Of a stretch of DNA of 64,000 bases, positions 9,763 through 13,245 are shown piece after piece. Under the pieces are notes generated by a model, which was not told the DNA's origin, made no database searches, and saw nothing but the letters and a program-made list of their open reading frames with translations. The stretch lies in assembly GCA_000004695.1 (NCBI GenBank), contig CM000154.2, forward strand, positions 224,001 through 288,000, written 5' to 3'. The DNA is from Dictyostelium discoideum. Lineage: Eukaryota. The position numbers and the translations under genes were made by a program. The number at the start of each line of letters is the position of its first letter. Position 1 is the first letter of the stretch.

Positions 9763-12700
9763 ATGGCAGATGCAGCCATTGTATCAGATATTTATATAGA
9801 AAAGATGTCAAATACAGATTATTCCACATCAAGTACAACAACTTCTGATACAACAGATTTAACTATCTCCACAGATAGTTTTTCAATGCCTCAACAACAA
9901 CAACAACAACCAATACCAATACCAATACCAATACCAATACCAATTCCTATATTAAACAATGGTAATAATTCAACAACAGCAACAACACAAGCAATTAATA
10001 ATAATTTAAATTTAAATAATAATTTAATTGGATCACCAAAGAGGTTATTGTCAAGTCAATCATTATCATCACAACAATTACAATCACCAAGTGCACCACA
10101 ACAACCTAAAACCTATCCATTACATGAAGCAGCATATAAAGGTGAATATGATAGATTGGTTTCATTGATTTTATTTACACAAGGAAAAATATCGGCAAGC
10201 ATTAAATCACCTTCAGGTTCACCACAATCTTCACGTCACAATCATCATAATCATCATCATACCCCAACCTCTCCATCATCCCAAAATAGCAGTAGCGGCA
10301 GCAGCAGCAGCAATAATAATAGTAATGGATCATTAAATCAACATTATCAACAAGATTTTACAGGTATAAATAGTTTAGATGATAAAGGTACAACAGCATT
10401 ACATCATGCTGCATTCAATGGACATAAACAATGTGTAAAATTATTATTGGCAAGTAATGCCTACACTGATGTACCCGATATTGACGGGTGCACACCACTT
10501 CACAATGCAGCATTCAATGGATATAAAACGGTGATGCAATTGTTATTGGACGCAGGTGCCGATGTAAATTCACACGATATAGATTTCAATACGGCATTAC
10601 ATAAAACATCATTCACTGGTTATCACAAATGTGCTGAACTTTTGATTGAACGTGGTTCTCAAGTTGAGGCAAGGGATAATCATGGTATCACTCCATTAAT
10701 TAAAAGTGCTTCCAGTAAAAACTTTAAATGTCTATCGGTTTTGATTGAACGTGGTGGTGCAAATGTAAACTCAAAAGATAATAGTAATAGCAGTGCACTT
10801 CATCAAGCTTGTTACAAAGGTAGTGATCGTTCAGTCTCACTCTTAATTCAAAAAGGTGCCGAAGTCAATTGTTTCGATAAAGAAGGCTACACACCATTAC
10901 ATAATGCAGTTTTCAATGGCTTTGAAGAATGTGCAAAAATTCTATTAGATAAAGGTGCAAATCCTGATCAAAGAGCTTTAGATGGTTGCTCTCCTTTACA
11001 TTATGCTGCTTCAAATGGTTTCGAAGGTTGTTTAAATTTATTAATTCGTCGTAATTGTAAATTAGATATAACGTATGTTATTATTATTATTATTATTATT
11101 ATTATTATTATTATTATTATTATTATTATTATTATTATTATTATTATTATTATTATTATTATTATTATTATTATTATTATTATTATTATTATTATTATTA
11201 TTATTATTATTATTATTATTATTATTATTATTATTATTATTATTATTTCAATTTATTTTATTTAGATATTAATCTCATGTTTTGGTTTTTTTTTTTTTTT
11301 TTTTTTTTTTTTTTTTATTATTAGTGATGTTAAAAGAGGTAGAACAGCATTACATTATGCAGCAAATAAAGGTCATATTGGTTGTGTTGAAATATTATTA
11401 AGAGCAGGTGCAGATTCAAATATTAAAGATTTATCAAATAAAACTCCAAAAAATTTAACAAAAGATTTACAAATCATATCATTACTTTCAACACCAATTG
11501 AAGAATTGAAAAAACATAAGAAATCTAAAAAAGGTAATAGTAAAGTTAATTCACCTGTATACCAATCACCACGTATTGATGGTGCTCCACAACAACAAAC
11601 TACTACAACTACAACTACCACTACAACTACTACAACTACAACATCTAATCAATCACCATTATCACAACAACAATTATTGGTGGAATCTTTATCATCATCT
11701 TCTTCAAATATTCAAGAGGATAAGAATTTATCACAACAAATACCAACACCAACAATAACAACAACTCAACCACCACAACAACCACAACAACAACAACCAC
11801 AACAAACACCACCACAACAATATATTATTTCAGTTGAATCAAATGTACATTCACCATCATCATTATCAATGACAAAAGAAGAGGGATCAATTCAACATTC
11901 ACCATTACAAAGTCAATCATCACCAACTGATGATGGTTCATCATTTCATTCTAGAACACCATCAACTGATTCAATTTCAACAGTTACTACAACAATGTCA
12001 AATTTAACAACAAGTAGTGCAACTGCAATTTTAGCAAATGCAAATTCAAATAATAATAATAATAATCACAATAATCACAATAATACAACTCCTAATAATA
12101 ATAATACAACTTCTTCTTCTTCTTCTAATAATAATAATAATAATACAAATTCAAATTCAACAACTACAACTACAACATCATCATTAAATAATTCAACATC
12201 ACCAGATACAACATTAAAACTTGATAAATATGGATTCGTTAAAGGTAATAATCCAAATGGTGGATTAAATGATGAAGAAGTTAAAACCAAAAAGATGGAA
12301 AAGATTGAAAAGAAATGGGTTAAATTGATAAAGTTTGAAGTTTCATTCACATCTCATAAGATTCGTGAACGTTTACCAAAGGGTATACCAAGTTCAGTTC
12401 GTGGTATGGCATGGAAAAAACTATTTGAAACTACATCAATCAAAAATAAAGCCAAAGTAACCTATGCAGAGTTATTAACCAAACCGTTACCACAGGGAAT
12501 TCATATTCAAATTCAAAAGGATTTAGATCGTACATTCCCAAAGCATAGTTTCTTTCAAGAGAAAGGTGGAATGGGTCAACAAATTCTTTCCAATATTTTA
12601 ACGGCTTTTTCAATCTATAATCCAGAGGTTGGCTACTGTCAGGGTATGGGTTTCATCACATGTTTACTCTTGATTTACATGGCAGAGGAGGACGCATTTT

Positions 12701-13245
12701 GGTCACTCATTCAACTCACCGAACGTTATGGAATGTCTGAAATGTGGAAACCAGATTTCCCTTATCTTCAAACTTGTTTCAGTATATTGGATAACCTATT
12801 GGAGGCGCATTTCCCTCAATTGTTTTTACACTTTCAAAAGCAAAATGTTTTCACACCACTTTTCGCCTCTCAATGGTTCATTTGTCTTTTGATCTACAAT
12901 TTACCCTTCTCCTATATCGTCCGTATTTGGGATCTCTTCCTCTATGATGGACTTGTAATTATATTTGCCTCTTGTCTTTCCCTCTTTAAAATCTACGAAG
13001 ATCATCTCTTGAAAATGGAGTTTGAAGAGATTGTTAACCTCTTAAAATTCTCAAATGGTGAAGATAAAAATATTAAAGCCGATGTTTCAACCTTTATGAA
13101 ATTGGTTGTCCATTATCGAAGTAAAATTAGACATACAATCAAAGATGGTCTTATTAAAGATCCAAATGAACATCGTATAAATAATAATAATAATAATAGT
13201 ACAATTTCAAATAATGGTAATAATATTAATAATAATCATCATTAA
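9763..13245 (+). CDS. Ankyrin-repeat plus TBC (Rab-GAP) domain protein; exons 9763..11072 and 11325..13245
   Basis: Exon 1 has an S/T/Q/N-rich N-terminus followed by six or more ankyrin repeats (TALHHAAFNGH..., TPLHNAAFNGY...). A GTATGT donor at 11073 precedes the (ATT)n tract. The acceptor ...ttattag at 11323/11324 restores phase. The next codons encode a further ankyrin repeat (GRTALHYAANKGHIGCVEILLRAGADSNIKD) in the same frame as track ORF 11506..13245. That ORF carries canonical TBC motifs: RGMAWKKL (Arg finger, RxxxW), IQKDLDRTFP (IxxDxxR) and GYCQGMGF (YxQ). Confidence 0.75.
11083..11246 (+). repeat. (ATT)~55 microsatellite followed by a poly(T) tract, inside the 252-nt intron of the ankyrin-TBC gene
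   Basis: Perfect trinucleotide repeat. The six-frame track reads it as poly-Ile/poly-Leu ORFs (9763..11265, 11075..11272), which are artefacts. Confidence 0.9.

Follow-up and report, generated by a model that had tools for sequence, protein, structure and literature searches.

Positions 9763 to 13245 of a 64,000-nucleotide (nt) stretch of Dictyostelium discoideum AX4 DNA (assembly GCA_000004695.1, contig CM000154.2, positions 224,001 to 288,000 of the forward strand; hereafter, the window) raise two connected questions. Do an open reading frame (ORF) with ankyrin (Ank) repeats and a downstream ORF with a TBC/RabGAP domain represent two genes or two exons of one gene, and, in the latter case, what is the role of the long ATT repeat that lies between them? 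An initial annotation, made from the letters of the window, joined the two domains across an intron. We hold with high confidence that 9763-13245 is one two-exon RabGAP gene with a single phase-2 intron and a product of 1076 amino acids (aa), in which (ATT)56 would be a neutral spacer. The proposed join is strongly supported by uninterrupted ORFs in orthologues, by a conserved intron site, and by the finding that only one of 83 candidate splice pairs fits. The features of the gene are as follows.

9763 to 11072, plus strand: exon 1, with the ATG start, a low-complexity N-terminus and ankyrin repeats; residues 1-436 and two bases of the Thr437 codon
11073 to 11078, plus strand: 5' splice site GTATGT, common to all eight D. 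discoideum-complex assemblies compared; D. purpureum has GTAAAT there
11073 to 11324, plus strand: the only intron, 252 nt, phase 2, 4% GC
11080 to 11247, plus strand: (ATT)56 microsatellite, located by Tandem Repeats Finder (TRF) and by regular expression
11263 to 11271, plus strand: candidate branch-site region, with ATATTAATC at 11266-11274 and an in-frame TAG (11263-11265) just before it
11286 to 11316, plus strand: T31 polypyrimidine tract, 8-38 nt upstream of the acceptor
11322 to 11324, plus strand: 3' splice site TAG, read directly and compared among assemblies
11325 to 13245, plus strand: exon 2, with the last ankyrin repeat (residues 442-472), linker (~490-735), TBC/RabGAP domain (794-999) and TAA stop

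The gene model can be read directly from the window. Exon 1 is 1310 nt long and therefore ends in phase 2; exon 2 contributes 1921 nt, the sum is divisible by three, and the spliced coding sequence (CDS) contains no internal stop. The GTATGT donor at 11073 and the AG acceptor at 11323/11324, which the initial annotation had named as keeping phase, are in place, and the frame across them is open. With its GT...AG ends, preserved frame, A+T content of 96% and polyT near the acceptor, the intron has the features of a canonical Dictyostelium U2-type intron. Around the junction there are 83 frame-preserving GT..AG pairs, and the peptide found in orthologues is reproduced by exactly one of them, 11073/11324. 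The remaining 82 pairs were rejected because they either delete conserved residues or insert FFFF-rich junk; the pair that inserts is 11077/11265, whose donor, GTTATT, is weak.

A six-frame view of the region does contain two ORFs, as had been reported. The first extends from the ATG at 9763 to the TAG at 11263-11265 (500 codons) and ends in ...DITYV(I)56SIYFI*, that is, in a poly-Ile read-through that remains open over the whole repeat; the second is listed as 11506-13245. Taken at face value, this view gives two genes, one for an ankyrin protein with a poly-Ile tail (9763-11265) and one for an independent TBC protein initiating downstream. We regard such an arrangement as extremely improbable. 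The listed start of the second ORF at 11506 is TTG, which is not a eukaryotic initiator, and the frame upstream of it is open and conserved back to 11325, encoding a full ankyrin repeat. The poly-Ile tail is present in no orthologue and would range from 0 to 71 residues between strains. The GC content of the intron is 4%, against 31-34% in the exons. In addition, every orthologue is a single protein that contains both Ank and TBC and runs through the junction without interruption.

These orthologues were collected by a homology search, which returned Ank+TBC proteins from Tieghemostelium lacteum, Acytostelium subglobosum, D. purpureum, and unnamed eukaryotic and metagenomic sources. Aligned with the full-length orthologues, the junction peptide CKLDIT|DVKRGRTALHYAA runs colinear and needs no insertion or deletion, and the peptide CKLDITDVKRGRTALHYAA across the junction is likewise colinear. 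In the genomic DNA of T. lacteum, the same 19 junction residues lie in one uninterrupted ORF with no intron there, and the sole intron of the gene sits inside the TBC domain. In D. purpureum, the DNA reads ...GATATAAC|GTAAAT...ACATAG|TGATGT..., an intron of 75 nt whose site and phase agree exactly with those in AX4 and which lacks the microsatellite; all eight D. discoideum-complex assemblies described below have an intron at this position and phase as well. A metagenome scan for the exon-exon junction gave a single match, contig Ga0256895_1005144 (L016, 3259 nt), in which 75-3095 of the minus strand is a complete Ank-TBC ORF of 1006 aa that has no interruption and includes the junction peptide. 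The contig belongs to a different dictyostelid (76-87% nucleotide identity) and could be a transcript or an intronless gene; it speaks for a continuous protein, though not for splicing in AX4.

Note that the deposited D. purpureum model, DICPUDRAFT_84688 (784 aa, GL871456.1, L001 3001-6150), is without almost all of the ankyrin repeats. The D. purpureum DNA has an intact exon 1 of 413 codons (L001 3001-4238) that encodes ankyrin repeats and is followed by the 75-nt intron; the GenBank model seems to treat ~720 nt of genuine coding sequence as intron.

The spliced protein contains three parts. Pfam recognizes ankyrin repeats with PF00023 (E 1e-61, 7 stretches) and PF12796 (E 1e-58, 4 stretches), so that there are at least seven repeats, the last complete one (residues 442-472) lying wholly within exon 2. 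The RabGAP-TBC profile PF00566 matches residues 794-999 (E 1.6e-57, 195 bits against a cut-off of 25.2, profile positions 2-216 of 216). Between the last ankyrin repeat and the TBC domain is a low-complexity, Q/N/T/S-rich linker of ~320 residues. The initial annotation was therefore right in placing a complete ankyrin repeat at the start of exon 2, but wrong in stating that the TBC core follows it immediately.

The signature motifs of the TBC domain are all present and are invariant in an alignment of 11 homologues: R796GMAW800 (RxxxW), I833QKD836LDR839 (IxxDxxR) and Y874CQ876 (YxQ). One assignment has to be changed. RxxxW had been taken for the arginine finger, whereas in the dual-finger mechanism of TBC GTPase-activating proteins (GAPs), reportedly described by Pan et al. 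in 2006, the arginine finger is the R of IxxDxxR. Since both R839 and Q876 are kept, a dual-finger Rab GTPase-activating function is to be expected of the 1076-aa protein, as predicted from its motifs. The ankyrin module, which presumably serves in protein binding and targeting, is joined through the disordered Q/N/T/S-rich stretch to the C-terminal TBC domain, a predicted dual-finger Rab GAP that may be targeted or regulated via the ankyrin module.

By sequence, the nearest solved structures are USP6NL (PDB 9ltp, E 1.3e-48) and RABGAP1 (PDB 4nc6, E 4.4e-44), to which the IxxDxxR and YxQ finger motifs of the protein align. Human USP6NL (RN-tre) and RABGAP1 share the TBC domain with the same finger motifs but, unlike the dictyostelid protein, have no N-terminal ankyrin repeats. 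The homology search turned up the combination of Ank and TBC in dictyostelids as well as in some unnamed proteins of metagenome or transcriptome origin.

To compare strains and species, the locus was taken from eight further assemblies via the flanking genes, and the intron was placed by the conserved exon flanks. Each of the eight has one called gene between mccA and the orthologue of DDB_G0287381. When this intron alone is removed, an open CDS results in all eight, with a length equal to that of the deposited product; the deposited models match the single-intron structure, and the earlier statement that this is the only intron of the gene holds. The assembly GCA_054883475.1, which is at chromosome level, has the same start, stop and 1076-aa length as the window gene, and its deposited model has the same exon 1 and start codon. 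The alleles are listed below with the product length, the intron length and the ATT tract.

Window, D. discoideum AX4: 1076 aa, intron 252 nt, (ATT)56
GCA_054883475.1 (L003, ACTFIT), D. discoideum: 1076 aa, intron 247 nt, (ATT)56, with T27 instead of T31
GCA_054859385 (L009, ACTFIR), D. discoideum: 1123 aa, intron 108 nt, interrupted (ATT)3T(ATT)2T(ATT)3
GCA_054859355 (L011, ACTFIW), D. discoideum: 1103 aa, intron 101 nt, interrupted (ATT)3T(ATT)2T(ATT)3
GCA_054859205 (L010, ACTFIY), D. cf. discoideum: 1107 aa, intron 91 nt, (ATT)4
GCA_054859235 (L012, ACTFIZ), D. cf. discoideum: 1108 aa, intron 228 nt, (ATT)47
GCA_054859325 (L013), D. citrinum: 1065 aa, intron 319 nt, (ATT)71 in the 3' half of the intron
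GCA_036169595 (L014), D. firmibasis: 1038 aa, intron 80 nt, (ATT)3
GCA_054859025 (L015), D. dimigraforme: 1105 aa, intron 109 nt, no ATT tract
L001, D. purpureum: deposited model faulty, intron 75 nt, no ATT tract

The initial annotation had proposed sizing the tract in different strains. Carried out in silico on these assemblies, the sizing reveals a polymorphic tract of 3-56 copies within D. discoideum sensu lato and 71 copies in D. citrinum. Compared with AX4, the Ank region of the alleles is at least 93% identical and the TBC region at least 97.7% identical, and there are no frameshifts and no stops. The lengths of the products vary as well (1076, 1103 and 1123 aa among D. discoideum isolates, and 1038-1108 aa in sister species), with almost all of the differences falling in the Q/N/T/S-rich linker and the Ank and TBC regions being nearly invariant. 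The coding microsatellites of the exon 2 linker (11481-11970 and 12020-12200) are also length-variable between isolates.

A problem that arises with any array of this length is its assembly. Because long simple sequence repeats (SSRs) are difficult to assemble (PMC3188802), the perfect repeat might be an artefact and the true intron might be short, as in ACTFIR and ACTFIW; the different T-runs beside the repeat in two AX4-like assemblies (T31 and T27) could be cited in favor of this idea. However, an independent chromosome-level assembly, GCA_054883475.1, carries exactly (ATT)56 at the same place, which makes an artefact unlikely, and related arrays of 47 and 71 copies occur in two other assemblies. 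Taken together, we give this explanation hardly any credence and treat the 56 copies as genuine. The window and GCA_054883475.1 differ within the gene only at 11284-11316 (L003 3473-3500), where TTTTGG+T31 stands against TTTTG+T27; the T31/T27 difference is either homopolymer instability or sequencing error.

We now turn to the content of the intron. The regular expression finds a perfect (ATT)56 at 11080-11247, which accounts for 168 of the 252 intron nt (67%), and TRF reports period 3, 56.7 copies and 100% matches at 11078-11247 (frame TTA from 11078). The array had been described as a perfect (ATT)55 filling most of the intron; its perfection and its share of the intron are confirmed, and the count is corrected to 56. 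A perfect repeat of 168 nt is beyond chance. Downstream of the array come 38 nt of A/T-rich sequence, then T31 (11286-11316), and then ATTATTAG. The element ATATTAATC is kept in the introns of all D. discoideum-complex assemblies, and D. purpureum has ACTAAT at the equivalent place; the region of ATATTAATC is a candidate for the branch site.

These features are those of an ordinary intron of the species. According to Irimia and Roy (PMC2483917), D. discoideum introns (n=17,300) have an A+T content of 89% and a median length of 103 nt (mean 143, standard deviation (SD) 158); their branch consensus is of the ACTAAT type, and polyT peaks at 15-40 nt from the acceptor. The length of 252 nt is no more than one SD from this mean and is in the normal range, and the position of T31 agrees with the reported polyT peak. 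Similarly, A/T arrays are abundant in the genome, in which SSRs make up 11%, 1,436 arrays exceed 100 bp, and the mean intron is 146 nt long (PMC3188802). The 64-kb window itself contains 27 perfect SSRs of at least 30 nt, including AAT/ATT-type arrays of 78, 90 and 93 nt. The intronic (ATT)56 resembles ordinary D. discoideum A/T microsatellites in being an A+T-only trinucleotide array that is non-coding and highly length-polymorphic. It differs from them in that it is the longest array in the window, that it occupies two thirds of its intron, and that large arrays are found at two places of this intron in different lineages.

The second place is seen in D. citrinum (intron L013 11758-12076), in which (ATT)71 lies 3' of ATATTAATC, where the polyT is located in other species, unlike the AX4 and ACTFIZ arrays, which adjoin the donor. 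This suggests, from the positions of the arrays, that independent expansions may have occurred at two sites of one intron. Were ATTAATC to act as the branch site in D. citrinum, its distance from the AG would be ~250 nt.

In AX4, the microsatellite would have grown by replication slippage in a part of the intron, between donor and candidate branch site, that tolerates added length. In AX4 and ACTFIZ alike, additional copies at this place would not disturb the usual layout of branch site, polyT and acceptor. The tract is considered tolerated because alleles of 0-71 copies occur with an intact, strongly conserved CDS.

An alternative is that the gene is the same but that the length of the tract modulates its expression: long alleles might splice worse, with retention of the intron leading to nonsense-mediated decay or to a truncated Ank-only protein, or might slow transcription, so that RabGAP dosage would vary by strain. 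Intronic repeat length is known to alter splicing or transcription in other systems, namely in CFTR with the intron 8 (TG)m(T)n, in FXN with GAA, and in Arabidopsis IIL1 with GAA. Like them, the present tract is a simple repeat of variable length that lies in an intron of a protein-coding gene. It is, moreover, highly polymorphic in natural isolates, large expansions have occurred at least twice (by the donor in AX4 and ACTFIZ, and in the 3' half in D. citrinum), and a retained intron would meet the in-frame TAG at 11263. Nevertheless, the length-dependent splicing suggested by the initial annotation finds no support here, and we consider this alternative very unlikely. Besides the tolerance just described, the AX4 array is placed after the donor and ahead of the candidate branch site, outside the polypyrimidine/acceptor region, so that the branch site, polyT and AG are arranged normally; the intron is of ordinary length for the species, and arrays of this sort are very common in its genome. 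In addition, (AUU)n RNA is predicted to be unstructured, which, with its tolerance and its position, sets the tract apart from the CFTR, FXN and IIL1 cases.

With regard to structure, folding of the intron RNA gives a minimum free energy of -10.3 kcal/mol, against -29.3 ± 3.0 for shuffled sequences, and a nearly empty centroid. The possibility that structured repeat RNA masks the splice sites was rejected, as the fold is weaker than that of every shuffle. A search for non-coding RNA in the intron or the gene gave no Rfam match in 9000-14000, even at E<=1. Perfectly complementary tracts do exist nearby, since (AAT)4-11 occurs at 12049-12146 (exon 2, poly-Asn), 13180-13197, and 13354-13386 (just 3' of the gene); long-range A-U pairing of the pre-mRNA with the intronic (AUU)56 is therefore formally possible. 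AAT tracts such as those in exon 2 are ubiquitous in the D. discoideum genome.

The identity of the gene was approached through its neighbors. The adjacent ORF 13838-14680 is an exact match to DDB_G0287381 (Q54KE4) of D. discoideum AX4, the ORF 23623-26277 on the minus strand is an exact match to AX4 Mlh1 (Q54KD8), and the ORF 6479-8443 is in the mccA cluster. In Forbes et al. 2021 (PMC8923023, Table S2), DDB_G0287379 is one of the 31 RabGAPs of dictyostelids; it has orthologues in five genomes, and its domain conservation is given as 'full'. Because our gene sits just upstream of DDB_G0287381 and DDB_G0287379 is on the RabGAP list, we identify the two; they agree in their place immediately upstream of DDB_G0287381 and in their family, and there is no known difference. 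The orthologues listed for DDB_G0287379, in D. purpureum, T. lacteum, P. pallidum and C. fasciculata, agree with the homologues found here (PMC8923023). The gene is, in other words, already catalogued, although the identifier gave no match in full-text literature and was found in that supplement only. The RabGAP Dd Rbg-3 (PMC3859538) was discarded as a candidate, being a separate gene, DDB_G0281891.

Several points weigh against our reading of the locus as one two-exon gene, DDB_G0287379, with a neutral spacer. The deposited models of the eight assemblies possibly come from one annotation pipeline and are then perhaps not independent; that pipeline has no bearing on the T. lacteum ORF, the L016 ORF or the intron of D. 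purpureum. Splicing in vivo at exactly 11072|11325 is what the comparative data and the deposited predictions point to, and the tract would be a neutral, unstructured and length-variable spacer on the grounds of its tolerance across strains. The copy numbers of the long arrays depend on the accuracy of the assemblies. The gene is almost certainly DDB_G0287379, this assignment following from adjacency and the RabGAP list rather than from a sequence match. Finally, the spliced 1076-aa protein has no exact match in the protein collection searched, and the homology search against it returned no D. discoideum-complex proteins, although genes of that size are called on the contigs; this is a trait of the collection and not of the biology.

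The new information is mainly descriptive: in close strains and species, the tract ranges from absent to 71 perfect copies while the protein is conserved, which illustrates how freely expansion of an intronic microsatellite is tolerated in Dictyostelium. The tract could be used to type strains, or as a natural series of alleles in which to ask whether intron length or A/U repeats affect splicing. A bolder interpretation makes it a natural 'tuning knob', with the 3-, 47- and 56-copy alleles and the 71-copy D. citrinum array changing splicing efficiency, intron retention or transcription and thereby RabGAP dosage in wild strains. We think it very improbable; if it were true, the recurrent expansion in one intron would mean a locus-specific propensity or selection. 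In other respects the finding is ordinary: for an annotated gene of a model organism, reading the letters of the window was enough to arrive at the right two-exon model.

Elsewhere in the window, the ORF 45267-46601 on the plus strand (444 aa) has many identical or near-identical copies on several AX4 chromosomes (17-member cluster), and a tRNA-Met gene (44970-45044, minus strand) is located ~220 nt from it. This ORF looks like part of a tRNA-gene-targeted retrotransposon of the TRE type.

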